A stretch of DNA of 64,000 nt from an uncultured Verrucomicrobiota bacterium (lineage in GTDB: Bacteria; Verrucomicrobiota; Verrucomicrobiia; Limisphaerales; CAIMTB01), in contig CAZSOV010000005.1 in the NCBI GenBank assembly GCA_964608505.1, positions 4,114-68,113 on the forward strand, in the 5' to 3' direction. Positions 4,756 through 63,904 of this stretch are shown piece after piece. Made by a program: the position numbers and the translations under genes. The notes under the pieces were generated by a model that made no database searches, was not told where the DNA came from, and worked only from the letters and a program-made list of their open reading frames with translations. How positions within the stretch are numbered: the stretch's first letter is position 1; every line of letters begins with the position of its first letter.

Positions 4756-5120
4756 GCCGCCAACGCTGTCGGACCACCCCTTCGCTTGTAAATAAAAATC
4801 CAGCAAATGAGCGAGTCAGGGCGTTTGGAATGGAATGTCGCGGGGCTGCGGCGACCCCTCATCCACCCGGCGGGCGGGTTCGCCGGACAGGGACAGGACG
4901 GATCTGGAGCAGGGCGGCATCCGGTCCGTGCGCGCCGCCGGAAGCGCGGGAACGCCGCGGACGGGCAATGGTTTGGACGCGCACCCGGCACCGCGGCGTG
5001 CCGTTGGACCGCAATTGGGGGTTGCGTTGGCGGGAGCGGGTTCGGTTAGCTGGGTGGCCCCGCGGGAGTCGCGCGGGGGTTCGGTGCGTTTTTCAACCCT
5101 GGTTCAAACCGCGGATTGTC

Positions 5121-18990: not shown

Positions 18991-19163
18991 CTCCGCTTCG
19001 ATCCGTTGAGTTCCACATGACACGAGTACTTCATCAACATCGGATCCGGGACTTTTAACAGCACCGAAGTCGTCGATTGGAGCGCGCAATGGTACTTAAA
19101 ACACAGGGATCTCCGGGAAATTTATTGTTGCGAGCCACAGCAGGGCGCCGCATCATCCACGCC

Positions 19164-48217: not shown

Positions 48218-51200
48218 CGGAACAGGTCCTTTCCGGTGCCAATCAGTTCACCCAGCCGGCGGGCCAGGTCCGGATTCTCGGTCGCGATCCGGCGCAACAG
48301 CACGTCCTCGACCTCGAGATTCAGAAACATGGGACGCGACATGCCCGCCTTCTCGAACGACCGGATGGCCCGGTCGGCGACCTCGTGGATCAACTCCCGC
48401 CGCAGCACGTCCGTGGCCCGGAACGTGCCCTCGGCCTTGCTCCCGGTGGCGGCGATGTCCGCCCCGTTCTGGGCCGCCGCCACCAGGTCGTCGTGCACCA
48501 GGATGATCTTGTCGTAGAGGATCCGGGCCGGATTCGCCGCCGACAGCGGCTTGCCCAGCCGCAGCGACTCGGCGTGCCCGATCACGCCCACACCGATGTC
48601 CTGCAACCGGTGCATGGCCGAGCCCATGAGGCGCTCGGGGAGGTCGAGGATCTTCGCCACGTCGGGAAGGGCCTTGGCCGCCACCAGCTCCGCCTGGCTC
48701 ATGACCTTCGTCACGGGATCGAAGAGATGGGTCAGGATCGGACCGTCGAACCGCACCCGGGGCACGACCTCGGTCAACACCTCGTCCGACCGCAGCGTGC
48801 GCCCGATCCAGGTGTCCGCGATCCCGGTCACCGCCCCCAGCCGGCTCGCGTCGTCCACGAGCCCCGCCGGCGACAGCAACGCCCGCGCCGCCTCGGCCCG
48901 GTCCGCGGAACCGCTCACCACCGACTGAATGGCCGTGCGCGCCTCCCGGACGCGCGAGGCACGGGCGACGTTCGCGAGCGCGCCGCCGACGGTCCCGCCG
49001 ATCTGCATCACGTCCGCGCCGGCGGCGAGATAGTCCCAGCCGGAGGGTGCCACGCCGGTGGTGTCCTCGACGGCGAGTTTGCCGCTGAGGGTGCCGAGGC
49101 CGGAGCCGACGTTGAGGGCGCCGCCGACGTACTGGCCCACGGCCTTGACGACGCCCGCGGCCACGGCCTGGGCCCAGCCGGGGTCGTCGCCCGCCGTCGC
49201 CACCATGTCCGCCAGTTGATCCGTGAAGTACTGCAGTTTGTCGCCCGAACCGCCCGTCGCCACGAGGGCTTCGAGCTGCTTGACCTTCGCCATGCTCGCC
49301 CGCGCCTCGGCCTGGCCACGCTCGACGCTCCATTCCAGGTAGGCCTCGTTGTATTTGTCCGCCCGATCCAGGCTCTGTTCGAGCTCCCGAATCGCCTGGG
49401 CCGCTGCTTCCTTCGCCTCCTTGCGCGCCTCGGCGATGACCTTCCGGTCCGACCACCAGGGCACGTAATGCTCGCCCGTCTCCGAATCGATGACGGTGTT
49501 GCGCAGCGACGGATCGACGTCCTTGTCGCTCCTGCCCTTCTTCGTCCCCGTATCCTCCCGGATCGAGTCGTCCCCGCCCCCGCCCCCACCCTTGCCGCCG
49601 CCCGCGTCGGCCTTCTCGTTCGCGTACCCGGTCGGGTCCACCCACGCCAGGGGATTGCCGAACGCGTACAGGTACCGATGCAGGCTCGCCGGGGTCCCGG
49701 CCTCGCCCGGGAACGCGTCCTGGCCGAGGAACCGCCCCTGCTCGTCGTCGTAATATCGTGCCCCGAAATAGTGCAGTCCGGTTTCCGCGTCCCGATAGTG
49801 CCCCGTGAACTGGCGTTCGTTGGCGACCGTCGACGCGCTGGCGGTCAGTCGTCCCCAGGCATCGTACCGGTACTCCGCCTCGCGCGCTCCCGACGCGGCG
49901 GTGAGGTGCACCGTGCTGCCCAGCGCGTCGGTCAGGTAGAAATGCCGGTCCAGGCCCGCGGCTCCTGCCGCCCGCGGCGTGCCCATCGCCAGCAGGCTGC
50001 CCCCCTGGTCGTACGTGCGCAGCGTCACGTGTCCCGCCGCCGCCGGACCGTACTCCAGCGCCACCGCCGCCTGATCGTAGAGATACCGCGTCTCCCCGGC
50101 GGCGGAGATCTTCTTCACCCGCATCCGGTCGGCCCCGTAGTCGAAGCGCGTCCAGGCTTCGGCCTCGCCGGTTTCGATCATCCGGTCCCGGATGTCGTGC
50201 CGGAACCGGCGCGCGATCCCGTCCTGTTCCCGAGAGACCTGGTTCAGGTTGGAGTCGTACCGGTACGTGATGGTTCGCGCCGCCGACAAGAGATCCTCGA
50301 TGCGCGTCAGGGCGTTCATGCCGTCGAAGGTTCCCGTCACGCCCGGCAACGCGCCGTACCGGAACACCCGATCCATCGGTTGGCCGGTCACGAAGTCGGT
50401 GCCGCGTTCCGTCAGGCGATTGCCGTTCGGCGCGTAGGTGTATCGCACACTGGCTCCGGCCCCGTTCGTCACCGCCGTCAACCGGTTCAGACCGTCGTAC
50501 CCGTACCGCGTGGTCTCCGGCACCGGGCCCAGGCCCGGGTTGAACTCCACCTGTTCCAGGCGGTTTCCGTTCGCGTCGTAGCGGTACCCGAACGAGGACA
50601 ACACCGTGCCACCTCCGGCCGCGGCGTTGGTGATCGAGAGGAGGCGGTCCGCCGCGTCGTAGGCCCGGGACGCGGACACGCCGCCCGGATAGTCCACGCG
50701 CCGCAACAGGCCGTCGGTTTCCCACCCGTATCCCACGGTCAGGGCGCCCGCACCCGTGCCTGCATCGAGGGTCACGGTCTCCAGCCGGTTGCGGTCGTCG
50801 TAGGCATACCGCGTCACCCGGCCGTCGGCGTCCGTCGATTCCGTCCGGTTGCCCGCGACGTCGTACCGGAAGCCCAACCGGCGGCCCGCCACGTCGTCGT
50901 GGTCGTGCCGCGTCCGTTCCATCAACCGGTCCAGCGCGTCGAACGCCTGGACGGTCCGTTCGGTGACCGCCGCCGCCCCCAGTTGCTTGGTTTCGCGAAT
51001 CTCGAGTTCGTTCCCGTTCCCGTCCCGCACCCACTCGATCCGCAGGGGCTGGAACTCCGCCGGATTCCCCGCCGTCCGCTCGGCGTGGCCCGTGTAGATC
51101 CGTTGCACCACGCGGTTCAGGTGGTCGTGGGAGGTTTCGATCCGCTGGCCGCGGGGGTCGACCAGCAGCGCGGGGTTGCCGTTGCCGTCGTACCCGTAGG

Positions 51201-54200
51201 TCCAGCGGAAGGCCGTCGCCGCGTTCCCCCCGGGTCCGGCACCCCGGTTTGCCGTCGCGCCGAGCGTGCCCGGCGCCGCGTGCTGGAGCACGGCCGTCAT
51301 CCGGTTCAAGCCGTCGAACTCCCGCGTCACGAGGTTGCCGTCGGGATCCTGCTGCGCCACCCGGTTGCGGGTCGCGTCGTACCGGAACCGGGTCACGCCG
51401 GCGTCCGCCGCGGTGCCGCGTGCCGACTCGTCCACCGCCAGCAGGGCGTTCAACTCGTCGTACTCGTAGCGGGTTCGGCCACCGCGCGGATCGATCCGTT
51501 CCACCACGTTGTTCGCGGCGTCGTAATGCTGGCGCGTCGTTTCCCCGAGCGCGTTGGAGGTCGCGATGCGCCGGTTCCGCGCGTCGTACTCGTGGCGCAC
51601 GTCGTGTGCCGCCCCGTGCGCGCGCGGGTCCTTGGCCGAGACGACGTTCCCCACGGCGTCGAACTCGAACCGCGTCGTGGCCGCCACCGCCGTTCCCGCG
51701 CCCTCGGTCGACGCCGTCCGCCGGTCCGCGGCGTCGTACTCGTGCGTCACCACCCGCCCGTCGCCGTCCTCCGTGCGCACCAGGTTCGAGTTCCCGTCGT
51801 ACTCGGTCCGCGACAGACGCAACGGATCCGCCCCGTACCGCGCCGCGAGGTTGCCCCCGCTCCGCCACACGCCGGTCTCCCGCCCCAGCGCGTCGACCTC
51901 CACCACGGTGGTCCGGCCATTGCGATCCGTCATCTCCCGCCGCCGGGCGGAGTCCCGGTAGACGTTGGTGATCGAGCTCCGCTCCACCCCCGCCGCGTCG
52001 AACTCCCGCACCACGAGCGGACGATTCAACCCGTCGTACACCGTCGTCGTCCGCTGCCCCCGTCCGTCCACGCGCACCGTCGGGTTCACCCCGTCGTAGG
52101 TCGTCGACAACGTCCGGCCCACGGGATCCCGCACCGACCGGGGCCGCCCGAGGCCATCGAACTCGATCCGCGCCCGGTTTCGGGCGGCGTCGTACGTGTC
52201 CTGCGCGTTCGCGGCGTCGTCGTACACGGTTTCCGCCAGCACCAGCCATGCCCCGTTCCCGCTCACGGACTCCCGCAGTTCCTGGGTTCGGGGCCGGCCG
52301 AGATTGTCGAAGGTGGCCCGGTGCTCGAAGCCGCGGCGATCCCGGCGCCACACGGCCTGGCCCGCGCCATCGTACGCCAGTTCCTCCGTCACCGGGCGGC
52401 CCTGGTCGTCGGGGGTCGCGACCCAGCGCGTCGACAACCGCCGCCCCAACTCGTCGTAGGCATGGACGAGGTCCACGTCGCCGTTCCGGGCGTCCACGAC
52501 TTCCAGCACGTTGCCCGCGGCGTCGTGCGTCATCCGGTTGGTGAGGTCGAGCACGCCCTCCGCCACGACCTGTTCCACCAGCCGGTCCAGGCCATCCTTC
52601 CGCACGCGCGAGGCGAAGCCGCGGGCGTTGGTGACCCGGATCTCGTTGCGCGCGTCGTCGTACCGCGTCCGCGTCACGTAACCCGGCACGCCGGGCCCGT
52701 TCAACACCGCCAGCGTCGGGCGCCCGATGCGGTCGAACGCGTTCGTGGTGACCAGACCCGAGGCATGATCGTGCTGGAGCGTCCGGTTGCCCGCCGCGTC
52801 GTACCCGAACTCGGTGGCGTTGCCCTCGGGATCGGTCCGCCGCACGAGCCGATGCAGGCGATCGTACTGGAACCCGGTGGCCCGTCCGTTGGCATCGGTC
52901 GACCGGAGGACGTTCCCGATCCGGTCGCGGCGGGTCTCGAGCCTCGCACCCGCGACGGGCAGATGGTGGGCCGACTGCCGGTGGAAACCGTCGTACTCGT
53001 AGCGGTTCGTCAGCCCGTGCCGGTTGATCTCGGACAGGGTGTTGTTCACGCGGTCGAACGTGACCGCGGAAACCAGTCCCCCCCCTGCGCCCGGCCCGCC
53101 ATGCGGTCCCGACACGACCGTCCGCTCGCGGCGGCTCAGGGCGTCGTAGGCGTGGGTGCGCGTCACGCCCCGTGCGTCCGTTTCGCGAAGGACGTTCCCG
53201 ACCACGTCGTGCTGCCACGAATTCGTGTAGCTGACCCGAGAACCGTCGACCTGGCGGACGTCCCGCTGCACCGAGCGCACGCGCCGGCCCAGGGCGTCGT
53301 ACTCGTGGGCCGTGACCAGACCAAGGGCGTTGGTCTGGAACCGCACCAACCCGCCCGCCAGATAGCTCGTCCCCGTCCGGGCGTCGGGCCCGCCGCCCAG
53401 CCCGCTGAGGTCGTTCAACCGGACTTCCGAGATGACCCGATCCAGGCCGTCGTACTCGATGCGGCGGTGATGGGTGAACGTGTCCCGGGACTCGCGCAGG
53501 CGGCTTCGTTCGTCGTACGTCTGCTCGACCTGGTTGCCCTCGGGATCCACCACCACCTCGGCATTCCCGTACGCATCGTAACGGGTGAACCGTGTCTCGT
53601 GCCCGCGCGGGTCCCGGCGCACCCGGACGTCCCCGCCCGGTTGGTACTCGAACGTCGTGACGTTCCCCGCCGCGTCCTCGCTCCGCACGAGGTTCCCCGT
53701 CGCGTCGTCCACCGCGAACGTCGTGGTGCTGCCTTCCGCGTCGACGACCGACAGCGGGACGTTGAACACGGGATGATAAACCTGGACCAGTTCCGACGTC
53801 GTCGTCGCCGCCCCGGTTCTGTCGAACACCGGCGTCTTTCCGGGTGCCACGCGCGTCGTCTCCCGCGTCACGTTGCCCCGACCGTCGTGATACTCGAACC
53901 GGGTCTCCAACCCCTCCGCGTCGACCTTCCGCGTCAACAGGACGTCCCGGACCGGTTGACCGGCCTCGTCCCGCACCGAGCCGTCCAGGTGATCCGTCGC
54001 CCACTCCATCGTCGTCGTCTGACCGAGCGGCGCCTCGATGCGCAGGGTCGCGCCATAGGCATTGAGGACATAGACCGTGTCCGGGACGCCCGCCGCGGCC
54101 CGCGGGTCCGACACCCGCCGCGTGCCGCCCGCGAAATCGTAGGTGAACCGCGTCACGGCATCGGCGGCGGCCTCGAACCCGGGCCGCGCCGCGCCCACGC

Positions 54201-57200
54201 GCGTCACCGTACGCACCATCTCGTGCGGCGGCACGCCGTCCAGCACGCCGGCCAGCGCATAGTACCCCGCGGCGCCCGTCGGAAAATACTCGTACCGGGT
54301 GACCATGCCGTTCGGATCGGTCCACTCGACCAGGTTGTGCGCGTTCGGTCCGCCTTGCTCGGGGGTGTACACGTATCGGTCGGTGCGGGTCTCTGCCGCC
54401 GACGCCCCGACCCGCGTGACGTTCGTGAGATGACCGACGTCGTCGTAGGCGTACCGGATTTCGAGACCCAACAGATCGGGACTGCCCTGCCGGTTGAACC
54501 CGCGCAGGGCCACCATCCGGTCCGCGCCCGCGATCCTCCGGTACTCGAACCGGAACCCGCGCTTGGGCAGGCCCGTCGGGTCGAACTCGGTCACCGTGTC
54601 GAGCGTCTCGCGGTTGGCATCCCCGTCCTCGTACGCCAGGCGCAGCTCGTTCCCGTTGGGTTCGCGGACGGACTGCAACGGGAAGACGCGTCCGGACGAG
54701 GTGCCGCGGGAGCCGTCGACGAGGAAGTGGTAACGCACGGCGGATTTCGTGAAGTACCACGCCTCCGCCGGGCGTCCGGTGTCCCGCGCCAGCACGGAGT
54801 GGTAACCGACCTGGGCGCGGAAGAACTCCCAGCGCCCGCTGGCCGCGGGCAGGAAGCGCGCGTAACGCGCCTCGCGGACGGGGTCGGGGACGGGATCGAC
54901 GAACGCGTGTCCGGTTCCCTCGCCGCCGACCACGGTGAACACGCCGCAACGTTCCTCGAGACGTATGTGATGGTTGTGGGTCCAACCCGCGCCGAGCGGT
55001 CCCGCCGAACCGTTGCCACTGCTCGAGTACGTGCGCGAGAAGTCGAGGGCCAGCTTCCGGCCCGGCACCGCCACGTCCTGGCGCGCGTGGGTCAGGTGCC
55101 CGTCCCACAGGTCCACGCCCTGGATCACCGCGTGGCCGATGGGGAAGGAGTGGTTCATCTCCACCTCGTGCTCGATCATCCCGGACACCGTCAGCGTCCG
55201 GTCCGGAGCCAATCCCGCGAACCGCGTGCCGACCGCTTCCACCGGGAACTCGCCGGCGCGCGGCAGATGCGCCGCGTCCACCAGCACCCGGTGCGAACCC
55301 GCCGTGAACGCGACGTTGGTGAAGACCGGAATGGAACGTCCCAGTTCGTCCAGCCCGCCGGTCAACGGACGCCCGTCCAGGAGGATCGTGATCTCGGCGT
55401 CCGGGTTCACCTCGAACTCGAGCCACGCGCTTCCCGGGCACGCGCGCTGGTTGACCCGGTCCACCGTGGTCCGCACCACGACCGGCGTTTCCAGGTTCAA
55501 CGACGGCGACAGGACGGACACGGGGCGGGCGACGCTCGCGCCCAGTCGCACCGGGGCCGCGTTGGGCGGCGGGTTCGCGACCAGGGTGCCCAGGCCCGAA
55601 AAGGGCCCGAGCACCGGGTTCGGGGCCATGCTCTCCGGGATGCCCACGCGCACCCGGCTGCCCGCCCGCAGAACCACCTGGACCCCGCGCGCGGGTTGCA
55701 GGTCCGCCGCTCCGGACGCGTCGTCCGCCAGCGACAACGGTCCCGACACGTAGGCGTTGAACGCCGGGGACAGGGCGTCGTGGCTCAACCGGTGCAGCAC
55801 CACCGCATCGTCGAACGACGCGAGCAGCGAGTTCGTCCCGGCCGCCAGCGTGCCGTCCGGTCCCAGGCTCATGACCGCCAGCCGGATCGTGCTCCCGGCA
55901 CCGCCGGGCGCCTCCACCATCACGTGCCAGCGGAATGCCGGGTCCGTCGCGGGCAACGCCGCGTTCGTGCCCTGCCCGATGACCGGAAGTTGCGGCGGCT
56001 CGACCAGGGCCCGCAGCGCGGCGAAGCGCTCCTCGGGATCGATCACGGCCATCGCCTCCGCCGTCGCGCGGCCCGCGGGCAGCAGCCGCACCCAGGGCGC
56101 GCTCTGGCTCACGACGTTCAGGTTGCGCAGGCTGGCCGCGGTCACGCCGCTGCCCAGCACCGCGAACGGCGTCACCCCCGCGCCCGCCCCCGAGATGCGG
56201 CCCAGGATCGCCGGGTGCACCCCGGACGCCCCGACGGGCGCGAGCAGTTTCGCGACGTCCAGGAACACCAGGTCCATGCCCGACGGGCGCGCGAGGGAAA
56301 GCGCGACGCGACCGCGGTCATCCAGCTCGGCGCCCTGCAACAGACCGTACTCCGAGACGGGCAACGGAATCTCGCCCGCTTCCACGAGGAAGTCCGGGCG
56401 CGACGCGTCGATGATGCGCAGCGAATTGGTCGCGTTGTCCGCGCTGATGAGGTTCACGAGGACCAACCGCCGCAACGCCGAGGGCACCGGGAGCAGGCGC
56501 TTCGGGTACCATCCGGGGAACTCAAGCACGTAGCCGTTCGGGATGGCTGGTGGCAGCGCGGTGTCGGGCGATGCCCCTCCGATCACGTAGGCCCGCAGCG
56601 CCGCCGGACGGTTCCAGGTGTTCGTCCGCACCGGGCGCCAGTCCACTTCCATCACCTGATCGATCCCGGAGGTGGTCAGCAGCAGGGCCAGGGAGCCCGC
56701 CCCGTCCGCCACGGCGTCGGTGATGTACCGCCCCGAGCGCACGAGATGATACGCCCCCGCGTCGGTGGTCCGGTTCGGCGCCAGCGACAACACGGCCTCC
56801 TCGCCCACCACGAGTTCCAGCGTGTCCTGTCCCTGCACCGGCAATGCCTCGCCCGCGTCGACGAAGTCGCCGTCGAGGTTCAGGTCCCGTCCCGGCTGGT
56901 ACCGCGGTGGCAGGGTGTCGAGCACGTCCCGGGGCACCTCCCGATAGGCGTCACCGAGCAGGAGGGATTGGAGGTTGAGCACGTGGACCTGCGGCGCGAA
57001 CGCCGAGTTCTCGGTGAGCAGCAGGTAGGGAGCCGACCACGAGAGCCGCGTGAGCAGCGCCGTCTCGTCCATGCTGATCGGGCCCCCGGCCACGTGAGGC
57101 GCGACCGCGAAGTTCTCGCCGAGTTCGTAGACCCGGATGTAGCCCCAGGCCGCCCCCTGGGTCTGGCCCGCGACGACGATCAGGTCCCCGCGCTTCACGG

Positions 57201-60200
57201 CGCCCGGTCTCGAACCCGGCACCCCGGGTTGCTCGAAGGCGAGGGTGTATTGGTAATCGGGCACCAGCACCATCGCCCGTGCCGGACCCGGCAGCGCTCG
57301 GGCATCGAGCCGCACCGGGCGCGCCGGAATCGAGACGTCGTACCGGTTCAACGTCTGTTCCCTCCGATCCAGAACGTACGCGTACGCCCCCCGCACCGCC
57401 ACGCCGCCGCCCTCGGTCACGCCGGACAAGGCCCCCAGCACCGCCGGCGCCGTCCGGAACCGCAGCACGAACGGCTCGTTCGTCGGTGCCGACGTCGTCG
57501 GGTCCTGATCCAGATATTGTCCCGTCAAATCCTGCACCCCCGCCACGTTCAACACGTACTCGCGGCCGTTCTCGAGCGCGGGAAATCGCAAGGTGACCTC
57601 CCTCGGGTCCGCGAGCATCGACGCCTGCACCGGACCGCCCGCCGGACTCAGCGTCACGTATTGCGACGGGTTGCGCGCCAGGTCCGGACTCACCCATTCG
57701 CTGAACCGCAGCCGGAATTCCGCCAGCGGATCCACGCCCATCGCGCCTTCGTCCGGCTGGGAGTACAGCACGCGCGGCCCGAGCGGATCGTTGACCGGGG
57801 CCAGCGGCGCCGGCGGGTCCCCCACCCGCACCACGTGCAGCGTCTCCCCGGAATTGCCGAACGCATCCGTCGCCCGCGCCCGCAGCACGACCTTGGCCTT
57901 CGCGTTCGCGGTCACCTCCCACGCCCCCGGCAATCCCGCCACCAACGTCACCAACGCCGTCGCCGGTTCCACCGATTCCACCGTCAACGTCGAGCTCGCC
58001 GGCCCGCTCTCGTCCACCGCCTCCACCCGCACCCCGACCCGGTCGCCCGGCGCCGGTTGCACCGGACGATGCAGCACCGTGATCGACGGCGGCGTCGTGT
58101 CCGGGGTCGCCTCCCGGTTGAACCGGATCTTGCCGCCGCCGAACGGGTGGATGGGATCGAACCGCGTGCCCGCCGAGCTCGTCGCGAATTGCCGGGGAAA
58201 CGACGGATGCGTCGCCGTCAGGACGTGCCCCTGCCCCGGGCTTCCCTGCCCCGTCTGCTCCGGCACGAGAAACGCGAATCTTCCGTCCCCGCCGCTGGTC
58301 ACCACCAGTTCCCCGCCCTGCAGGCTGAACGGTCGCGAGTTCAACGCCGACAACGCCCGCGCCCGCACCACCGCTCCGCCCAGCGGCACGTCGGTGTCCG
58401 GATCAGCGTCCAGGCCGCCGCGGAACAACGCCGACGTGGTCTGCCCGATCAGCTCCGTGTTCGAGTAGTACACGTTGCCCACGAGCATCACCCGCGCCGC
58501 CGCCGGATCGACGAAGGCGTAGAAGCCCGCAAACAACGCCGCCGGCTCCCGCCGCCCCGCCAACGCCAACGACAGGGCCCGCGCCGCCCCACCCGCACCC
58601 GCACCCGCCGGTGTCAGCACCGACAAATACTCGTACACCGGCACCGTCCGCTCTGCCCCGTCCGCGAATTCCGTGATCTCGCGGAACGCCGTCGCCATGA
58701 GCGTCAGGTCGTCCAGCGTCCGCCCCGGCGGCGGCACCCACCGGCCCGGCTCCGGACGTACCTCAATCCGGACCTTCCCCTGCACCGCATCCCCCTCCAC
58801 CGCCAGATCGAACCCGCCGAACAACGTCGCGTCCTCCGGTGCCGTGCCCTGCGTCGCCGCACCCAGCTCCTCCGCGCGCAGCGGCGTCAGCCGGAAGCGC
58901 GTCCGCCCCAACACCGCCCCCGCCGGCACGTCCAACACGATCTGGAGATCGTCGTTCCGGTTGGTCACCCGCCCGCCCTCGCTGAACAACGCCACGCTCC
59001 CGTCCGGGAACAACTGGCGCCCCACCGGATACGTCGACCGCGTGCCGTCCGGATGCACGAGGACCACGCTCAACCGATCCCCCTCGTCCGCCGCCAGGCG
59101 CTGCGCGAAACTCCCGTCCGGCTCCGTGAAACCCGACGAGGTCCGACCGGTCGTCCCGTTCACGAACAGGATCGGCTGGCGCGGCAGGCCCATGCCCGGA
59201 CTTCCCCGCACCCACGCCTCCCCGTTCGCATCCGGCGCCTCGCTGACCAGTTGCGCCCCCGCCGCCCGCTCGAACTTCCGCGCCACCGTCGTGAACCCGA
59301 ACTCCCGCGCGCCGATCAACCGGTTCCCGCGCGCGTCCTCCACCGTCGCCCCCACCCGCACGACGTGCGCCGTCGCCTCGGCCAGTTCGTTCGACGCGAT
59401 CAACCGCGCGACCCGGCCCTCGTCCTCCCACTCCAACCGCGCCGGCACCGCGTTGGAACGCGCGTCCAGCAGTTCCACCCCGGGTCCGCCGCCCCCCACC
59501 CGCACCGCCTTGCTGAACCGGACCACGACCGGCGTCAGCAAGCCCACGTCCACCGCCCCCGCCGCCGGAACGACCTCCGCCACGAACGGAGCCGCCGCCG
59601 CCGTCGTCATTGCCACCGCCTCCGCCACCCGCGTGGCCGGCATCGTGAACGCGCGGCTCGCCGCCTCGCCCGTCACCGGATCCCGCGTCACCAGCATCCC
59701 GTCCCCCACCCCAGCGACCAATCGAAAGCCTCCCGCCGCGTCCGTCCGCGCGCCCCACGGCGTCCCCGCCACCCGCACCTCCGCGCCGCGCACCGCCGCC
59801 CCTGCCGCGTCCCGCAACGTCCCGGCCACGATCCCCACCCCCGAGGTCACCCGCACCAGCACGTACTGCCCGGAACGATCCACGCCCGACAACGCCGCCG
59901 CACCGTCCGTCGTCGACTCCGACACCGTGCCCCCGCCGACGGTCCACGCCGCGACCGGTTCCAGTCCGGTCTCCGCGCCCTCGTACCAGCGCCGGGCCAG
60001 CACGTAGTTCCCGTCCTGCGGCGCCGGATCGAAGCGCACGCGCCACCGGTCGCCCGGACCGCCCATGCCCGCCGCCAGCGCGAACGCCGCGACCCCGTCG
60101 CCCAAGGACGCCGCATTGGTTTCGAACCCCACCTCCACCGCGCGGCCCGGCTGATTCGCCGGCCCCTCCGTCGACACCACCAGGCCCGACACCTTCAGAT

Positions 60201-62010
60201 CGCCGCGCACCCCGCCCACCACCCCGCCCGCGAAGGCGGCCTCCGGCAGAATCTCCGCCGTGATCCGCGCCTCCTCCAACCGCGCCGCCCCCATCAACAG
60301 CCCCGGACGAAGGGGGAACTCCGCGAATGCGCTCGACGCGCCGTCCCGCCCGACCCGCCGACGCAACGTCAACGACGCCTCGTAGCCCATCGGCGCACGC
60401 ACGCTGCCGTCCGCCAGCCGGTACTCCTCCCGGACCCAGGCCCGCAACGCCGTCCCGCTCGGGATCGACCCCAGCCGGTTCGTCACCTCCAACTCCGCCA
60501 TGCCCCGGACCTCCACCACGTTGGTCGAGGCCACCACCGCGCCCGGCCGGACCCGACCCCAGGCCAGCCAACCGGAGACATCGACCACCCGCGCCGCGCG
60601 CTCCGGCAGCACCACCCCCGGCACGGGTATGGGCACGGCCACGGGGACCGCCCCCTGCGTCGCCGCGCCCTCCGCGTCCGCCGACACCACCGCATACGCG
60701 GCGGGTTCCGGCAGCGCGAACTCGATCCAGTCACTTTCCCGCGCCGAACCGTTTTCCACGACGCGCCACGCGAGGTTCGCGGCGTCGAACCGCGCCAGCA
60801 CCACCGGCGCGGGCGTCGCGGGAAACACGTCCTCCGTCCGCACCCCCACCCGTGTCCCCGCCGGCCATGCACCCGGCGCCTCGGCCCACCACGCGCGTTG
60901 CAGCGACCAACCCAGCGGCAGAGGGAACGGCAACGCCTGCGACTCCAGCACCGTCACCTCGACCCCCGACCCCGCCGCCGCGCCGCCCGCGAACGTGCCC
61001 GCGTCGACCCGCAACCGGTTCGTGATCTCGCGCCATCCCCCGCCCGTCGTCGGTCGTATCACCCATCCCGACCGTCGTGTCAGCCGGGGCGTGGACAACT
61101 TCACGACCTCCAACGCCTCGAGCCGCGCCGTCCGCCAGACCGGCAGGTACCCCTCTGCCTCGAATCGCCATCGGTATTCCCCGGGCTTCCCGCCCAGCGA
61201 CACCGCCCCCGCCTCCGGGTCGCTGGTCAGCGTCGCCGCGCCCGCCGGCAACAACGGCGTCACCCGCGCCCCGCCCATCGGACGACCCTCCCCGTCCAGC
61301 ACCCGCGTGAACGCCAGCGGCTCCTCCACCGGCCTCGTCCGCGCCGCCACGTAGACCCGCGTCGACAACACCGGCGCCTCGTTTCCGAGCCTGCCGAGCG
61401 TGATCGACCGCGCCCTCGTGGTTTCCCCCGGGGCCAGCACCCCGTCGCCCGTCCCGCCCGACAGATCCCAGAAGCGCGGTTCCTCCGCCGGACTCCCGGC
61501 CACGTTGTCCGCGTCCCCCGGACCGCTCGTGCCCCGTGACTCCGCCACCGCCAGCAGCAGCGCACCCGTCAACTCGCCCGCTCCGACGTTGGCCACCGTC
61601 ACCTCCGCCTGCCAGGCGCCCACGAACCGGCTCCACCGCATTCCCGCAAACCGCACCCTCACCTGGCCCGTCACGTCGTCGAACTCCGCCGTCCCGCCCG
61701 CCAACCGGAACGTCCGCGACCCCTCCGCCGCCCCCACCCCCAACCCCAACCCCAGCCACATCCACATCCACACCCACACCCCAACCCAAGCCCACCCTCG
61801 GACCAGCGACCCCCACGTTTGGAACTTTGAACTTGGATCTTGGAGCTTCCCCCACCCGTCATGGCACTCCGCCCCCCACCCTCGGTCAGCGCAACCCACC
61901 CCTTGGAACTTTGAGCTTTGATCTTGGAGCTTCCCCACCTCTCCCCACCCCGGACCCCACCCCCGACCTTCCACCCCTTGGAACTTTGAGCTTTGACCTT
62001 GGAGCTTCAT
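48214..62010 (-). CDS. Giant RHS/YD-repeat protein with teneurin-like layout and novel C-terminal payload (4598 aa from ATG 62010, or 4517 aa from ATG 61767)
   Basis: Dozens of YD repeats (YEYDGLDRV, HEYDALGRRV, HAYDALSRRE, FQYDRLHRLV ...) between about 49.6 and 55.1 kb. Shell start GVDLWDGHLTHARQDVAVPGRKLALDFSRTYSS...GAGWTHN. RHS core end FTGHYRDAETGLHYFGARYYDDEQGRFLGQD...YLYAFGNPLAWVDPTGY, then a 469-aa tail. N-terminal ~2200 aa of Ig-like, CarboxypepD_reg-like and beta-propeller-like units. The track ORF runs to 63219, but that 5' part is an R/G/A-rich shadow of the upstream gene. Confidence 0.9.
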   Translation of the reverse strand: MKLQGQSSKFQGVEGRGWGPGWGEVGKLQDQSSKFQGVGCADRGWGAECHDGWGKLQDPSSKFQTWGSLVRGWAWVGVWVWMWMWLGLGLGVGAAEGSRTFRLAGGTAEFDDVTGQVRVRFAGMRWSRFVGAWQAEVTVANVGAGELTGALLLAVAESRGTSGPGDADNVAGSPAEEPRFWDLSGGTGDGVLAPGETTRARSITLGRLGNEAPVLSTRVYVAARTRPVEEPLAFTRVLDGEGRPMGGARVTPLLPAGAATLTSDPEAGAVSLGGKPGEYRWRFEAEGYLPVWRTARLEALEVVKLSTPRLTRRSGWVIRPTTGGGWREITNRLRVDAGTFAGGAAAGSGVEVTVLESQALPFPLPLGWSLQRAWWAEAPGAWPAGTRVGVRTEDVFPATPAPVVLARFDAANLAWRVVENGSARESDWIEFALPEPAAYAVVSADAEGAATQGAVPVAVPIPVPGVVLPERAARVVDVSGWLAWGRVRPGAVVASTNVVEVRGMAELEVTNRLGSIPSGTALRAWVREEYRLADGSVRAPMGYEASLTLRRRVGRDGASSAFAEFPLRPGLLMGAARLEEARITAEILPEAAFAGGVVGGVRGDLKVSGLVVSTEGPANQPGRAVEVGFETNAASLGDGVAAFALAAGMGGPGDRWRVRFDPAPQDGNYVLARRWYEGAETGLEPVAAWTVGGGTVSESTTDGAAALSGVDRSGQYVLVRVTSGVGIVAGTLRDAAGAAVRGAEVRVAGTPWGARTDAAGGFRLVAGVGDGMLVTRDPVTGEAASRAFTMPATRVAEAVAMTTAAAAPFVAEVVPAAGAVDVGLLTPVVVRFSKAVRVGGGGPGVELLDARSNAVPARLEWEDEGRVARLIASNELAEATAHVVRVGATVEDARGNRLIGAREFGFTTVARKFERAAGAQLVSEAPDANGEAWVRGSPGMGLPRQPILFVNGTTGRTSSGFTEPDGSFAQRLAADEGDRLSVVLVHPDGTRSTYPVGRQLFPDGSVALFSEGGRVTNRNDDLQIVLDVPAGAVLGRTRFRLTPLRAEELGAATQGTAPEDATLFGGFDLAVEGDAVQGKVRIEVRPEPGRWVPPPGRTLDDLTLMATAFREITEFADGAERTVPVYEYLSVLTPAGAGAGGAARALSLALAGRREPAALFAGFYAFVDPAAARVMLVGNVYYSNTELIGQTTSALFRGGLDADPDTDVPLGGAVVRARALSALNSRPFSLQGGELVVTSGGDGRFAFLVPEQTGQGSPGQGHVLTATHPSFPRQFATSSAGTRFDPIHPFGGGKIRFNREATPDTTPPSITVLHRPVQPAPGDRVGVRVEAVDESGPASSTLTVESVEPATALVTLVAGLPGAWEVTANAKAKVVLRARATDAFGNSGETLHVVRVGDPPAPLAPVNDPLGPRVLYSQPDEGAMGVDPLAEFRLRFSEWVSPDLARNPSQYVTLSPAGGPVQASMLADPREVTLRFPALENGREYVLNVAGVQDLTGQYLDQDPTTSAPTNEPFVLRFRTAPAVLGALSGVTEGGGVAVRGAYAYVLDRREQTLNRYDVSIPARPVRLDARALPGPARAMVLVPDYQYTLAFEQPGVPGSRPGAVKRGDLIVVAGQTQGAAWGYIRVYELGENFAVAPHVAGGPISMDETALLTRLSWSAPYLLLTENSAFAPQVHVLNLQSLLLGDAYREVPRDVLDTLPPRYQPGRDLNLDGDFVDAGEALPVQGQDTLELVVGEEAVLSLAPNRTTDAGAYHLVRSGRYITDAVADGAGSLALLLTTSGIDQVMEVDWRPVRTNTWNRPAALRAYVIGGASPDTALPPAIPNGYVLEFPGWYPKRLLPVPSALRRLVLVNLISADNATNSLRIIDASRPDFLVEAGEIPLPVSEYGLLQGAELDDRGRVALSLARPSGMDLVFLDVAKLLAPVGASGVHPAILGRISGAGAGVTPFAVLGSGVTAASLRNLNVVSQSAPWVRLLPAGRATAEAMAVIDPEERFAALRALVEPPQLPVIGQGTNAALPATDPAFRWHVMVEAPGGAGSTIRLAVMSLGPDGTLAAGTNSLLASFDDAVVLHRLSHDALSPAFNAYVSGPLSLADDASGAADLQPARGVQVVLRAGSRVRVGIPESMAPNPVLGPFSGLGTLVANPPPNAAPVRLGASVARPVSVLSPSLNLETPVVVRTTVDRVNQRACPGSAWLEFEVNPDAEITILLDGRPLTGGLDELGRSIPVFTNVAFTAGSHRVLVDAAHLPRAGEFPVEAVGTRFAGLAPDRTLTVSGMIEHEVEMNHSFPIGHAVIQGVDLWDGHLTHARQDVAVPGRKLALDFSRTYSSSGNGSAGPLGAGWTHNHHIRLEERCGVFTVVGGEGTGHAFVDPVPDPVREARYARFLPAASGRWEFFRAQVGYHSVLARDTGRPAEAWYFTKSAVRYHFLVDGSRGTSSGRVFPLQSVREPNGNELRLAYEDGDANRETLDTVTEFDPTGLPKRGFRFEYRRIAGADRMVALRGFNRQGSPDLLGLEIRYAYDDVGHLTNVTRVGASAAETRTDRYVYTPEQGGPNAHNLVEWTDPNGMVTRYEYFPTGAAGYYALAGVLDGVPPHEMVRTVTRVGAARPGFEAAADAVTRFTYDFAGGTRRVSDPRAAAGVPDTVYVLNAYGATLRIEAPLGQTTTMEWATDHLDGSVRDEAGQPVRDVLLTRKVDAEGLETRFEYHDGRGNVTRETTRVAPGKTPVFDRTGAATTTSELVQVYHPVFNVPLSVVDAEGSTTTFAVDDATGNLVRSEDAAGNVTTFEYQPGGDVRVRRDPRGHETRFTRYDAYGNAEVVVDPEGNQVEQTYDERSRLRESRDTFTHHRRIEYDGLDRVISEVRLNDLSGLGGGPDARTGTSYLAGGLVRFQTNALGLVTAHEYDALGRRVRSVQRDVRQVDGSRVSYTNSWQHDVVGNVLRETDARGVTRTHAYDALSRRERTVVSGPHGGPGAGGGLVSAVTFDRVNNTLSEINRHGLTNRYEYDGFHRQSAHHLPVAGARLETRRDRIGNVLRSTDANGRATGFQYDRLHRLVRRTDPEGNATEFGYDAAGNRTLQHDHASGLVTTNAFDRIGRPTLAVLNGPGVPGYVTRTRYDDARNEIRVTNARGFASRVRKDGLDRLVEQVVAEGVLDLTNRMTHDAAGNVLEVVDARNGDVDLVHAYDELGRRLSTRWVATPDDQGRPVTEELAYDGAGQAVWRRDRRGFEHRATFDNLGRPRTQELRESVSGNGAWLVLAETVYDDAANAQDTYDAARNRARIEFDGLGRPRSVRDPVGRTLSTTYDGVNPTVRVDGRGQRTTTVYDGLNRPLVVREFDAAGVERSSITNVYRDSARRREMTDRNGRTTVVEVDALGRETGVWRSGGNLAARYGADPLRLSRTEYDGNSNLVRTEDGDGRVVTHEYDAADRRTASTEGAGTAVAATTRFEFDAVGNVVSAKDPRAHGAAHDVRHEYDARNRRIATSNALGETTRQHYDAANNVVERIDPRGGRTRYEYDELNALLAVDESARGTAADAGVTRFRYDATRNRVAQQDPDGNLVTREFDGLNRMTAVLQHAAPGTLGATANRGAGPGGNAATAFRWTYGYDGNGNPALLVDPRGQRIETSHDHLNRVVQRIYTGHAERTAGNPAEFQPLRIEWVRDGNGNELEIRETKQLGAAAVTERTVQAFDALDRLMERTRHDHDDVAGRRLGFRYDVAGNRTESTDADGRVTRYAYDDRNRLETVTLDAGTGAGALTVGYGWETDGLLRRVDYPGGVSASRAYDAADRLLSITNAAAGGGTVLSSFGYRYDANGNRLEQVEFNPGLGPVPETTRYGYDGLNRLTAVTNGAGASVRYTYAPNGNRLTERGTDFVTGQPMDRVFRYGALPGVTGTFDGMNALTRIEDLLSAARTITYRYDSNLNQVSREQDGIARRFRHDIRDRMIETGEAEAWTRFDYGADRMRVKKISAAGETRYLYDQAAVALEYGPAAAGHVTLRTYDQGGSLLAMGTPRAAGAAGLDRHFYLTDALGSTVHLTAASGAREAEYRYDAWGRLTASASTVANERQFTGHYRDAETGLHYFGARYYDDEQGRFLGQDAFPGEAGTPASLHRYLYAFGNPLAWVDPTGYANEKADAGGGKGGGGGGDDSIREDTGTKKGRSDKDVDPSLRNTVIDSETGEHYVPWWSDRKVIAEARKEAKEAAAQAIRELEQSLDRADKYNEAYLEWSVERGQAEARASMAKVKQLEALVATGGSGDKLQYFTDQLADMVATAGDDPGWAQAVAAGVVKAVGQYVGGALNVGSGLGTLSGKLAVEDTTGVAPSGWDYLAAGADVMQIGGTVGGALANVARASRVREARTAIQSVVSGSADRAEAARALLSPAGLVDDASRLGAVTGIADTWIGRTLRSDEVLTEVVPRVRFDGPILTHLFDPVTKVMSQAELVAAKALPDVAKILDLPERLMGSAMHRLQDIGVGVIGHAESLRLGKPLSAANPARILYDKIILVHDDLVAAAQNGADIAATGSKAEGTFRATDVLRRELIHEVADRAIRSFEKAGMSRPMFLNLEVEDVLLRRIATENPDLARRLGELIGTGKDLFR
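61818..62010 (-). repeat. Three copies of a ~33-nt A/T-richer motif (coding-strand consensus GAAGCTCCAAGRTCAAAGCTCAAAGTTCCAAGG) embedded in G-runs
   Basis: Copies at 61818-61850, 61901-61934 and 61976-62010 (plus-strand TTGGAACTTTGAGCTTTGATCTTGGAGCTTCC). Copy-to-copy spacing is 84 and 75 nt. The array lies between the stop of gene 62010..63194 and the hydrophobic N-terminus of the RHS protein. Confidence 0.85.
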
Positions 62011-63194
62011 CACCTCACCCCTCCCTCGTAGTCGATCCACCACTCCTCGCGTTCCCGGCGCACCCCCTTCATCCGCGTTGCGCCGCGCTCCTCCGACTGC
62101 GCGATCCGGAAGAACCGCACCACGTCGCGCCGTGACACCTGGATCGTCTGCCGCGCCGTGTCGAACCGGGCCAACGGCTCGTCCGCGTAGGGCCCGCACG
62201 GTTGGGCGCTCGATTGCAGACTGAACACCCGCGGGCGGTACTCGAACCCCACCCGCCATTCCCCGGGCCCCGCCACGAACGTCGTGATCGCCATCCGCAC
62301 CTCGCCGCCCACCCGCAGGAAACCCGCCCCCGCTCCCGCCGTCGGGTTCGGCGTCCCGTCCGCCCGCGGCACCCGGAACTCGCGCCGCGCCAGGTCCAGC
62401 ACCGCGTTCGTCACCCGCGCGTACGGTCCCTCCGGACGCGACGCCCGTTCCAGGAACGGACGCGGCTGCGGAAACTCGTAATGGAACTGCCAGTCCTCCG
62501 CCGTCGGGCCCGTCATCCGCAGCGTCACCTCCGAATCCGCACGCAACCGGAAGAACCGTGCCACCCCGCCCGCGAGCAGCCGCATCCGTCTCGACTCCTC
62601 CTCGTACCCCACCCCCATCTCCACCGCGTAGGGGCCCGACGGCGACGACGACGTCTCGAGCAGGAAATACCGAGTCCGCGCCGTCACCTGCACCTCCCGC
62701 ACCCAGGCCACCGACCGTTCCCCGTCTCGATTGTCGAACAGATCCACGAACAACGACGTGCAACACCCCTGCCATGCCAGCGGCACCGTCAACGTCACCG
62801 CGAACGACATCTGCATCGGCCACGTCCCGAACTCCGCCGTCGGCCAGGCCGACGACTCGTGCCGCAACCCCGTCAGGCCCGCGTCCCAGCCCTCCGGCGA
62901 TCCCGCCGGAAGCCACGCGGCCCCGTGCACGTCCGTCACCCCCAGCAGCGCCCCGCCATGTTCCCCGTTCGTTTGCAGCGTCAGGCTCAGCGCGTCCCGG
63001 AACCCCTCCGCCTCCGTCCCTTCCCGCGAACCGAACCCCACCAGAAACGACACCCGATCCAGCCCCACGCCGAACGGCAGCTTCAACGCCACCTCCTCCG
63101 AATGCAGCGCGGTCCCCCCATCCGCCTCCAACCGCGTGCTCCCCGCCCCCCACGCCGGGACCCCCACGCCCAGCACCATCCCGAGACACACCAC
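62010..63194 (-). CDS. Secreted hypothetical protein (~394 aa): beta-sandwich-like N-domain plus three tandem 'GPY...FFR[LI]' modules; start uncertain (GTG 63194/63191 or ATG 63179)
   Basis: Frame of track ORF 62010..63749. Protein-like composition starts at VSWVVVCLGMVLGVGVPAWGAGS (signal peptide). Three modules: LLETSSSPSGPYAVE...VARFFRLRAD, LERASRPEGPYARV...AGFLRVGGE, LQSSAQPCGPYADE...VVRFFRIAQS. The upstream part of the ORF is G/R/P-rich and contains a REP-like hairpin. Confidence 0.75.
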   Translation of the reverse strand: MVCLGMVLGVGVPAWGAGSTRLEADGGTALHSEEVALKLPFGVGLDRVSFLVGFGSREGTEAEGFRDALSLTLQTNGEHGGALLGVTDVHGAAWLPAGSPEGWDAGLTGLRHESSAWPTAEFGTWPMQMSFAVTLTVPLAWQGCCTSLFVDLFDNRDGERSVAWVREVQVTARTRYFLLETSSSPSGPYAVEMGVGYEEESRRMRLLAGGVARFFRLRADSEVTLRMTGPTAEDWQFHYEFPQPRPFLERASRPEGPYARVTNAVLDLARREFRVPRADGTPNPTAGAGAGFLRVGGEVRMAITTFVAGPGEWRVGFEYRPRVFSLQSSAQPCGPYADEPLARFDTARQTIQVSRRDVVRFFRIAQSEERGATRMKGVRREREEWWIDYEGGVR

Positions 63195-63245
63195 GACCCA
63201 CGAAACGCCCCTTGCCCAACCGCCGACACCGGCGTCAGGTCGTCC

Positions 63246-63270
63246 CCCTCTCCCGTCCGACGGGAGAGGG
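63246..63270. repeat. REP-like perfect hairpin CCCTCTCCCG-TCCGA-CGGGAGAGGG
   Basis: 10-bp perfect GC-rich stem with a 5-nt loop, read directly. It lies about 50 nt upstream of the proposed start of gene 62010..63194. It has the same style as the GGGAGAGG-type palindromic elements common in GC-rich genomes. Confidence 0.5.
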
Positions 63271-63439
63271 CCGGGGTGAGGGTGACCCGCCCGGCCGTGG
63301 TGCGTCGCCCCAGCCCGGGCCTCGCCCTTCCTGAGCACGCCCTCCGCCCACCACGATCGCCCTGCACCGCGCAACGGCACGCGGCAACCGGGCCAGATTC
63401 GTTCCCCCCACGACATGCCCGCACCGTACCCGGCCAACC

Positions 63440-63454
63440 TTAATCCACCATTAA
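63440..63454. promoter_or_regulatory. Isolated AT-rich palindrome TTAAT-N5-ATTAA upstream of the giant-gene operon (candidate operator)
   Basis: TTAATCCACCATTAA is a perfect 5-N5-5 inverted repeat. It is the only AT-rich patch in the ~250 nt upstream of the first gene of the minus-strand operon. Function is inferred only. Confidence 0.2.
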
Positions 63455-63877
63455 CGCCGCCGCGTGGGGGCACGCGGCCTACCGCCCGATGGGTGCACCG
63501 ACCTGTAAGCCGGGGCCACCGACCCCCTCCCCCGCCCTTCTTTGCGTTCGTCGCGCCGGGGCGGGATCCACTCCCTCCGCGGTCCACCATGGCCGTTCGC
63601 ACGCAACGCCGCCACGACCGCAACGAGGCGCAGCCCAGTTCCCGCGCCCCTGCCGGGGCGCCTCTGCGAGGGGCTGGGGGAACCGGCGGCTGCGCCCACG
63701 CCGCGTGGGCTTGCCGCCGGCTACCTTCCGATGTCCCTCCGGGACCCAATCGATCCAGCGCTCATCACCGAGGCTCGGCCGCGGGACAACTTCCTTCGAA
63801 CTCAGCCTCGGCCGCCTTCCGCGGAATTAGGCCGTCTGAGACCGTCCTCCAAGTCGCGGAGCGACGACCGAAGGTTG

Positions 63878-63904
63878 CCGGGGCCTTCAGGCCCCGGTTT
63901 CGTT
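63878..63904 (+). terminator. Intrinsic-terminator-like hairpin (orphan)
   Basis: CCGGGGCC-TTCA-GGCCCCGG perfect 8-bp stem followed by TTTCGTT. No convincing plus-strand CDS lies upstream. It is flanked by two copies of GTCGCGGAGCGAC (63853-63865, 63922-63934). Confidence 0.35.

Follow-up and report, generated by a model that had tools for sequence, protein, structure and literature searches.

Several families of dispersed heptanucleotide repeats have been described in bacteria. The GGGNATC repeats of Xanthomonas and Nostoc are non-coding, show a preference for four units and are located within 50 bp of stop codons (Rehm et al. 2015, PMC4692102), TAACTGA repeats have been reported from marine Beggiatoaceae (MacGregor 2015, PMC4679880), and an excess of heptanucleotides among long simple sequence repeats (SSRs) has been reported (Mrazek 2007, as cited in PMC4679880); similar heptamer families in the literature are unexplained. 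Heptanucleotide repeats upstream of the HMW1A gene of H. influenzae are involved in SSR-based phase variation (PMC8262952, PMC12721329), and the intervening sequence (IVS) of 23S rRNA genes, which carries an S23p open reading frame, for instance in Coxiella burnetii, is regarded as a selfish element (Warrier et al. 2016, PMC4990558). Here we analyze a family of heptamer arrays in an uncultured Verrucomicrobiota bacterium (GCA_964608505.1, order Limisphaerales), three members of which are located at the very 5' end of a giant RHS gene (48214-62010, minus strand) in a 64,000-nt stretch of contig CAZSOV010000005.1 (C5 in our numbering), to which we refer as the window and whose coordinates are used throughout.

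The three arrays at the junction between the RHS gene and its upstream neighbor are, in our judgment, probably an inserted element of a non-coding type, which was triplicated in frame and is now translated as part of the n-region of the RHS signal peptide. The evidence comes from the repeats themselves, from their relatives elsewhere in the genome, and from the corresponding junctions in other members of the genus.

The heptamer family at the RHS junction and in the genome

A search for repeats in the window (with 100 shuffles as the control, and with Tandem Repeats Finder, TRF, for tandem periods) revealed a single three-copy family on the minus strand, whose members are all in direct orientation, consist of GAAG followed by four YTCMAAG heptads, and are spaced by 75 and 84 nt from start to start. 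Copy 1 (61977-62008; GAAG, CTCCAAG GTCAAAG CTCAAAG TTCCAAG) begins 2 nt past the A of the RHS ATG and encodes KLQGQSSKFQ as residues 2-11, copy 2 (61902-61933; GAAG, CTCCAAG ATCAAAG CTCAAAG TTCCAAG) encodes KLQDQSSKFQ as residues 27-36, and copy 3 (61818-61849; GAAG, CTCCAAG ATCCAAG TTCAAAG TTCCAAA), the more diverged one, with its four heptads at 61818-61845 and GAAG at 61846-61849, encodes KLQDPSSKFQ as residues 55-64. A 33-mer shared exactly or with one mismatch is present at 61901-61933 and 61976-62008, with zero expected from the shuffles, and TRF reports a period of 7 at 61819-61848, 61909-61932 and 61984-62007, the heptads being imperfect (82% matches) and only four per array. On the gene strand, the sequence directly past the upstream TGA reads GTGATGAAGCTCCAAGGTCAAAGCTCAAAGTTCCAAGGGGTGG. 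The repeat region has a GC content of 0.59-0.65, compared with ~0.74 around it, and a strong G-skew on the gene strand; it is followed by a microsatellite of period 6/12/18 (61720-61797), which is C-rich as written and G-rich on the gene strand. An earlier sequence-only reading of the window had described three frame-keeping copies, each of four subunits of about 7 nt, which read GKLQ[D/G][Q/P]SSKFQ in the RHS frame and form AT-richer islands between spacers prone to form G-quadruplexes (G4), next to an ATG that shares one nucleotide with the upstream stop and to microsatellite-like DNA encoding a Trp-rich hydrophobic segment; all these features were recovered, with the coordinates of the copies shifted by only 1-2 nt.

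An alignment of the three units extends from end to end. The spacer of unit 1 (61934-61976, minus strand) is rich in G-runs, contains the canonical G4 motif GGGGG-T-GGGG-TCC-GGGG-T-GGGG and is homologous to the spacer of unit 2 and to the DNA past copy 3. The homology of the spacer of unit 2 (61850-61901, minus strand) to the segment past copy 3 (CGCTG(A/GT)CCGAGGGTGGG) marks it as a duplicate of part of the DNA that originally encoded the signal peptide: both spacers are diverged copies of the DNA past the third array, which encodes ...SLVRGWAW..., where the n-region ends and the hydrophobic core begins. Among the three units the arrays are 88-97% identical, as opposed to 58-67% for the co-duplicated spacers (Fisher p = 7e-8), and the arrays are therefore constrained or homogenized at the level of nucleotides; they are not constrained at the level of protein, because the differences between the copies are G/D and Q/P replacements. 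All 100 shuffles are predicted to fold more stably than the leader RNA (z = +2.46), hence the latter is not a structured RNA. No inverted partner of the three copies was found anywhere in the 64-kb window, no sigma-70 promoter-like or intrinsic terminator-like site in the scanned region 61400-63600, and no match to the repeats in Rfam, which for paired loci elsewhere returned only sub-threshold noise of the microRNA-hairpin type.

The genome-wide search for the 33-mer, which the sequence-only reading had proposed, proved decisive. The assembly is fragmented (8.2 Mb, 68% GC, 529 contigs, 88% complete), and coding segments were delineated with our own crude caller based on GC content at third codon positions (GC3), which yielded 4541 segments covering 75% of the genome, so that gene calls are heuristic. 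A pattern search with up to 2 mismatches gave 49 matches compared with 0 for the reversed control (49-72 matches across pattern searches), a regular-expression scan found 77 arrays of at least 3 units at 38 loci, and a profile search with nhmmer identified ~100 copies on 41 contigs. The canonical element can be written as a G-run and GAAG followed by YTCCAAG-NTCAAAG-CTCAAAG/CTCAAAA-TTCCAAG/TCCCAAG. Four units are the commonest length (34 of the 77 arrays), followed by three (27), five (11) and more than five (5); GAAG and a G-run precede 40 of the 77. The flanks are G-rich on the strand of the array (G 0.40 vs C 0.25), and of 76 arrays, 14 have a G4 motif no more than 80 nt away on their own strand and one has it on the other strand, compared with 3.4% of random windows. 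YTCMAAG is the only clear AT-containing word of period 7 in this genome.

All 38 loci fall outside the GC3-defined coding segments (chance ~7e-24). They are found between tandem (24), convergent (6) and divergent (5) genes, in both orientations and with no sense or antisense bias, and often 3-30 nt past a stop codon. Of the 24 tandem loci, 17 have the array nearer to the upstream stop than to the onset of downstream coding (p = 0.03, with crude gene calls). Other sense arrays upstream of genes are followed by an in-frame stop before the likely start, or the start is downstream of the array. The repeats at the RHS junction are thus members of a genome-wide and otherwise strictly intergenic family, which explains their low GC3 and the atypical codons that had been noticed in the sequence-only reading. 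Loci with multiple copies (on contigs C129, C95, C150, C235 and C451) contain inverted pairs and tandem units of 116-245 nt. Since only the arrays are common between loci, while the spacers are locus-specific and duplicated only locally, the dispersed unit is the ~33-nt array, accompanied by local tandem duplication of the neighboring DNA. An attempt to infer the transcribed strand of paired arms from G-U versus A-C pairs and from minimum free energies of both strands gave mixed results.

The family in related genomes

Within the order, 66 of the 251 genomes, representing 39 of 132 genera, contain arrays of four YTCMAAG units, whereas none was found in 200 genomes that belong to the other orders of this phylum. 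Among 13 congeners, 12 have no such arrays, and the genome analyzed here has the highest count of all, which indicates a recent burst. Two species of another genus (genome G217, locus L175:1330-1680, and genome G132, locus L195:2380-2740) share an orthologous paired element, which starts 6 nt past a TAG stop, is separated by ~95 nt from the next ATG, and has arms that differ in length between the species by exactly 7 nt (left) and 21 nt (right); a second syntenic pair differs in size. The arrays therefore persist through speciation and change by slippage of heptads.

The only match above the cut-off in our genome to PF05635, which together with TIGR02436 represents the "23S rRNA IVS protein" family, is a protein of 147 aa (contig C451, 2908-3351), which is also recognized as "four helix bundle protein" by TIGR02436 (61 bits) and resembles the PDB structure 2RLD. 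Its gene lies inside the largest YTCMAAG cluster, with a canonical reverse array ending 25 nt before the ATG and a forward array starting 47 nt past the stop. The cluster is a 1.5-kb block (C451:2440-3940, locus L201) with 12 heptamer arrays between two ordinary genes, and the block of array plus spacer upstream of the four-helix-bundle gene is duplicated downstream with 94% identity. A similar arrangement is found in relatives: in a set of 26 PF05635 loci, which come from 21 genomes of the order, arrays of period 7 flank the gene at both ends in 13 cases and at one end in 4, at a distance of up to 200 nt, the words being reverse-complementary at 9 of the 13 double-flanked loci, and the density of such arrays is 3.15 per kb near the gene vs 0.21 per kb farther off (15-fold). 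In a second set of PF05635 loci 15 of 20 are flanked.

Each of these genes has a word of its own (loci L203-L252, 21 genomes), for example TCAGTTG, AGAATCC, GGTTGAA, GAGCGGC, GGAGGTC, CAGGAGG or ATCATAA, and genome G217 has at least 5 heptamer words for 7 PF05635 genes, which suggests that protein and repeat are paired by the word. In the array-rich relatives (G217, G062, G181 and G170) the words at the PF05635 genes retrieved are related, but not identical, to the one described here (CTCCAAA, CTCAAAC, TTCAAAT). PF05635 is nearly ubiquitous in the order and occurs also in congeners without YTCMAAG arrays, therefore the link would be one of specific words, and not of presence or absence. The three copies at the RHS junction are not paired inverted arms and form no hairpin: they are direct, without an inverted partner, and their RNA is less structured than shuffles. 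They are therefore solo arms, which represent only parts of the element.

Heptamer arrays are also found in coding sequences elsewhere in the order. In 17 PSCyt1-PSCyt2 (DUF1549) genes from 14 genomes, 11 genera and at least 5 groups of paralogues, a 30-nt in-frame array occurs at one fixed site before the NPID motif (loci L152-L168, for example L149/L154 at G038:C6:~28883-28918, L150/L158 at G032:C78:8711-8746, and L151/L156 at G016:C43:6287-6322). It reads GTT CAA AGY TCA AAG YTC AAA GTT CAA ARY and encodes P(E/K)VQSSK(F/L)KVQ(N/S)P(I/V)D, in proteins of which three that were compared are only 38-43% identical overall. The codons of the array are rare in its flanks (CAA 31/32 vs 27%, GTT 24/27 vs 6%), although the loci were found by a DNA pattern, which makes these counts partly circular. 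Nevertheless, we estimate from the codon frequencies in the flanks that a gene for this peptide would contain these codons with a probability of ~7e-7, so that 17 such genes cannot result from selection on the protein alone; the nucleotide sequence was either conserved or repeatedly acquired at one site. The PSCyt2 paralogues of the genome analyzed here, at least 40 in number, are without the array.

Homologous junctions and the start of the RHS protein

The RHS gene overlaps its upstream neighbor in an ATGA junction (62008-62012, minus strand), in which the RHS ATG (62010-62008) shares one nucleotide with the TGA (62012-62010) of a gene (62010-63203, minus strand; GC3 coding signal at ~63203-62013) that encodes a signal peptide and three C-terminal L.SS..P.GPY...FFR modules. 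Homologues of the N-terminal domain of the RHS protein are present in 8 of 14 genomes of the genus, with homology beginning at residue ~98 (SRTFRLAGG), and through them we reached six junctions in the same genus, a comparison that the sequence-only reading had also advised. No conspecific strain was found in the protein collection, where the best match is 55-56% identical. The upstream three-module gene is conserved in these relatives and adjoins the giant gene in all six; the ATGA overlap is present in five, and in the sixth the upstream gene ends 7 nt before the RHS start. None of the six junctions contains heptamer arrays. In the homologues the ATG opens an ordinary signal peptide, e.g. MNRARSSFVPRWAHSIVPRVLGFLLGFGVLGLALGFG, and is separated from the homologous region by 102-159 nt (34-53 codons). 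In the genome studied here the ATGA is kept (as ATG AAG, like in three of the relatives), but 279 nt (93 codons) lie between it and the homologous region, and the excess over a signal peptide of 40 codons is 159 nt, which equals 84+75, that is two extra units.

The hydrophobic core of the signal peptide (61729-61797, minus strand; residues 72-94, GWAWVGVWVWMWMWLGLGLGVGA) is rich in Trp, Gly, Val and Leu and encoded by the G-rich microsatellite with its TGGGTG and TTGGGG units. At the matching place the closest homologue has VLGFLLGFGVLGLALGFG, which is rich in Gly, Leu and Phe, so the core seems to have been remodeled by expansion of the microsatellite. The Trp-rich stretch reads WAWVGVWVWMWMW, and the microsatellite underlying it includes three TTGGGG units. 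A cleavage site is predicted after the core and is likely to be VGA|AEG.

These observations can be combined into the following scenario. The complete form of the element would be an IVS-like cassette, in which inverted heptamer arms surround a PF05635/TIGR02436 gene, while most copies would be geneless and many unpaired. The element seems to favor sites just 3' of a stop codon, and as the upstream stop overlaps the RHS ATG, it would have landed at codons 2-3 of the RHS signal peptide; the stop/start overlap in the operon places "just after the stop" at codon 2 of the next gene, and therefore the exceptional position of these copies can be explained without any special function. The array together with ~45 nt of the adjacent n-region DNA would then have been tandemly duplicated twice, in units whose lengths of 84 and 75 nt keep the frame; tandem duplication of an array with its adjacent DNA is found also at other loci of the family. 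Translation would still start at the conserved coupled ATG 62010, a point to which we attach moderate confidence, and the arrays would be read as a hydrophilic, Lys-containing extension, giving an n-region of 71 aa compared with 12-27 in the homologues. Being upstream of the predicted VGA|AEG site, the extension would be removed with the signal peptide, so that the insertion could be nearly neutral for the mature toxin. The arrays look like a selfish element, and the extension is probably harmless.

Translation of the arrays is favored by the intact, conserved and coupled ATG, by the unusually low degree of structure in the RNA near it, and by the lengths of the units, both of which are multiples of 3, as opposed to 6 of 25 spacings between arrays of the same orientation at other loci. 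Lys or Arg residues able to serve the hydrophobic core as an n-region are found only in or after the third repeat, and the n-region that results from the upstream start contains 9 K/R and 7 D/E. The PSCyt2 genes described above provide cases in the order where heptamer arrays are translated in frame. The genome is poor in Shine-Dalgarno sequences (a GGAG/GAGG/AGGA core at positions -20 to -4 in 15% of 734 unambiguous starts, vs 18% in random DNA), which therefore give no guidance on the start codon apart from the preference for ATG, which accounts for 79% of the starts. A low GC3 would be shown by recently acquired repeat DNA in either case, translated or not.

Several facts weigh against the insertion and in-frame triplication of a translated element. 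From ~62000 to 61830 none of the frames has the GC3 signature of coding DNA; the signal in the RHS frame starts at ~61782, and the family is non-coding at all other loci of the genome. The open frame is weak evidence, since two of three frames are open across the region and forward arrays never contain stops, and a tandem repeat of 7 nt encodes the same cyclic peptide of 7 residues in all three frames. Two spacings would both be multiples of 3 by chance in ~1/9 of cases. An n-region of 71 residues, 3-6 times the length of that in the homologues, may impair export. Finally, with respect to the postulated complete form, the presence or absence of PF05635 does not discriminate, as congeners without the word carry it too, and the cassette with the exact word rests on one gene-bearing copy, in this genome only. 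The spacing in multiples of 3, which the sequence-only reading had taken as evidence for coding, still counts in favor as far as the two unit lengths are concerned, whereas the shared reading frame as such was dropped as evidence, since the peptide is independent of the frame; of its suggestion of a coding N-terminal repeat we retain the probable translation from the retained ancestral coupled ATG, whereas there is no sign of selection on the peptide.

The same facts could be accommodated if the RHS protein started at GTG 61779, GTG 61773, ATG 61770 or ATG 61764, all of them in frame on the minus strand and inside the hydrophobic core (61764-61779), and if the ~230 nt with the three arrays were an intergenic spacer or leader, the insertion and its duplications having functionally cut off the old ATG from the body of the gene. 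The coding signal begins at about this place (~61782), the other 37 loci of the family are non-coding, gene starts in other cases with a sense array upstream are located downstream of it, and the open frame is to be expected by chance; we regard this explanation as possible, if somewhat doubtful. It has to face the intact, in-frame and conserved ATG coupled to the upstream stop, from which initiating ribosomes would make the extended protein anyway, and the fact that a start inside the core would leave only 13-17 hydrophobic residues with no positively charged n-region. The two unit lengths, both multiples of 3 in contrast to most spacings elsewhere, also speak against it.

A more ambitious proposal, which we put forward tentatively and consider rather unlikely, is that heptamer arrays are cis-sites of the four-helix-bundle protein (IVS-protein or Avd-like), with one word per protein variant, and that this hitherto undescribed partnership spreads or maintains the arrays across an order and acts also on arrays in coding sequences, such as those of RHS and PSCyt2. 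If this were true, the three in-frame arrays would not be inert debris but a live handle on RHS expression, through processing, translation or switching by heptad slippage.

The sequence-only reading had also envisaged a non-coding DNA or RNA element that controls the giant gene. The part of this idea that stands is the origin of the arrays as a repeat element of DNA; its narrower form, in which the arrays would bind a DNA- or RNA-binding protein and the G4 spacers would tune the RHS operon, is unsupported, and we find it improbable. The excess of identity of the arrays over the spacers, the enrichment of G4 motifs near arrays and the conservation of the heptamer word across the order speak for it, as does the role of heptad repeats as promoter or leader elements in other bacteria, such as those of HMW1A (PMC8262952) or TAACTGA (PMC4679880). 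Nevertheless, the array conservation can be equally explained by homogenization with the ~100 genomic copies, the family occurs between convergent and divergent as well as tandem genes in both orientations with no sense or antisense bias, all six homologous junctions and 12 of 13 congeners lack it, and neither a promoter-like nor a terminator-like site accompanies it here.

Pentamer repeats are known to switch some surface-protein genes from within the signal-peptide region. By analogy, the gain or loss of one heptad in a translated 5' end would turn the RHS toxin off or on, and the location of the arrays in the 5' coding region of a giant secreted protein, together with the difference of exactly 7 and 21 nt between orthologous arms in two species of another genus, agrees with such a contingency locus. 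With imperfect units, only four per array, slippage would be rare, and a family that is overwhelmingly intergenic suggests a by-product instead, which leaves little room for this explanation. The possibility that KLQ[DG][QP]SSKFQ is a genuine protein repeat, selected for instance as a motif for targeting or secretion, is very improbable, since, although it occurs three times in frame and contains Lys, this peptide is what the genome-wide DNA element encodes in any frame, all homologues lack it, its copies differ mostly by non-synonymous changes (G/D, Q/P), and Pfam finds nothing in this region, not even an extended-signal-peptide domain.

The practical consequence of reading the junction as captured repeat DNA is that the odd N-terminus of the RHS protein should be annotated as such, and not as a new protein motif; the comparison also establishes which start codon is ancestral. 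As a natural experiment, the locus bears in addition on the amount of foreign sequence that the n-region of a Sec signal peptide can absorb. The restriction of the word family to one order and the presence of a single gene bracketed by that word make the proposed link between protein and repeat directly testable.

With regard to the surroundings, the RHS gene encodes 4598 aa when counted from ATG 62010, with RHS repeats, DUF6531, Big_5 and CarboxypepD_reg identified by Pfam; the scan of the whole protein revealed no domain at the repeats and no extended signal peptide region (ESPR). The three genes of the operon are tightly packed, the RHS stop (48214-48216) directly abutting the ATG (48217) of the next gene, which encodes 4289 aa. 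Rfam reports a match to the Acido-Lenti-1 RNA (63852-63897, minus strand; 38.5 bits, gathering score 37, E = 1.6e-6), which lies ~650 nt upstream of the operon, counted from the likely start codon of its first gene.

Comparison with known systems

Among elements with which the arrays might be confused, repetitive extragenic palindromic sequences (REP) and their composites (BIME, REPIN) are similar in that they, too, are short and intergenic, frequently paired in inverted orientation, frequently located at the 3' ends of genes, and amplified locally in tandem. An assignment to the REP/REPIN system with its REP-associated tyrosine transposases (RAYT) was rejected, as the array is not palindromic, RAYT-like genes are at least 1.4 kb away from any array, and the spacers of paired arms are not conserved between loci. 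The genome does contain an unusually large expansion of RAYT-like genes, ~98 in number, of ~360 aa and with half of a Y1_Tnp domain (the NCBIfam model for REP-associated tyrosine transposase scores below its cut-off); two of them are in the window (3721-4806, minus strand, and 19077-20198, plus strand), and the paralogues are 61-87% identical, often located at contig ends, and none adjoins an array. Miniature inverted-repeat transposable elements (MITEs) were rejected as well, because the interiors are locus-specific and not conserved between copies. The ESPR of giant secreted proteins was rejected too, for the N-terminus of the RHS protein has no such Pfam motif (only RHS_repeat, Big_5, DUF6531 and CarboxypepD_reg are found).

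The repeats upstream of HMW1A resemble those described here in that heptanucleotide units are located at the 5' end of a very large gene for a secreted protein and that the number of units changes between related species. They differ in that the units here are imperfect and few, and belong to a genome-wide family that is mostly unrelated to surface genes.

The 23S rRNA IVS shares with the cassette on contig C451 a small four-helix-bundle gene between inverted repeats and the appearance of a selfish insert. A gene-bearing copy with the same word is present in this genome and the architecture is general in relatives, but inverted hairpin arms are not found at the RHS junction, where the copies are geneless, unpaired and direct, and are thus unable to form a hairpin for RNase III. 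Moreover, unlike the IVS, the cassette resides between protein-coding genes and has heptamer arrays as its arms.

The closest relatives are the dispersed heptameric SSR families, namely the short tandemly repeated repetitive (STRR) heptamers of cyanobacteria and the GGGNATC and TAACTGA heptamers. The 7-nt unit, the many dispersed and over-represented copies, the excess in non-coding DNA with a bias to gene ends, often within ~50 nt of a stop between co-directional genes, the preference for about four units, and the patchy, lineage-restricted distribution are all found in the family described here. It departs from them in that its word YTCMAAG is A-rich in a genome of 68% GC, with the G-runs in the flanks and not in the unit, and in that four units in a fixed order together with the GAAG boundary form an element of ~33 nt rather than a pure microsatellite. 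It also forms inverted pairs around locus-specific DNA and, in the present case, three in-frame copies inside a gene. To the unexplained bacterial heptamer repeats it thereby adds a well-delimited case, in which one genome combines one dominant word in ~100 copies with only one four-helix-bundle gene, flanked by arrays of this word.

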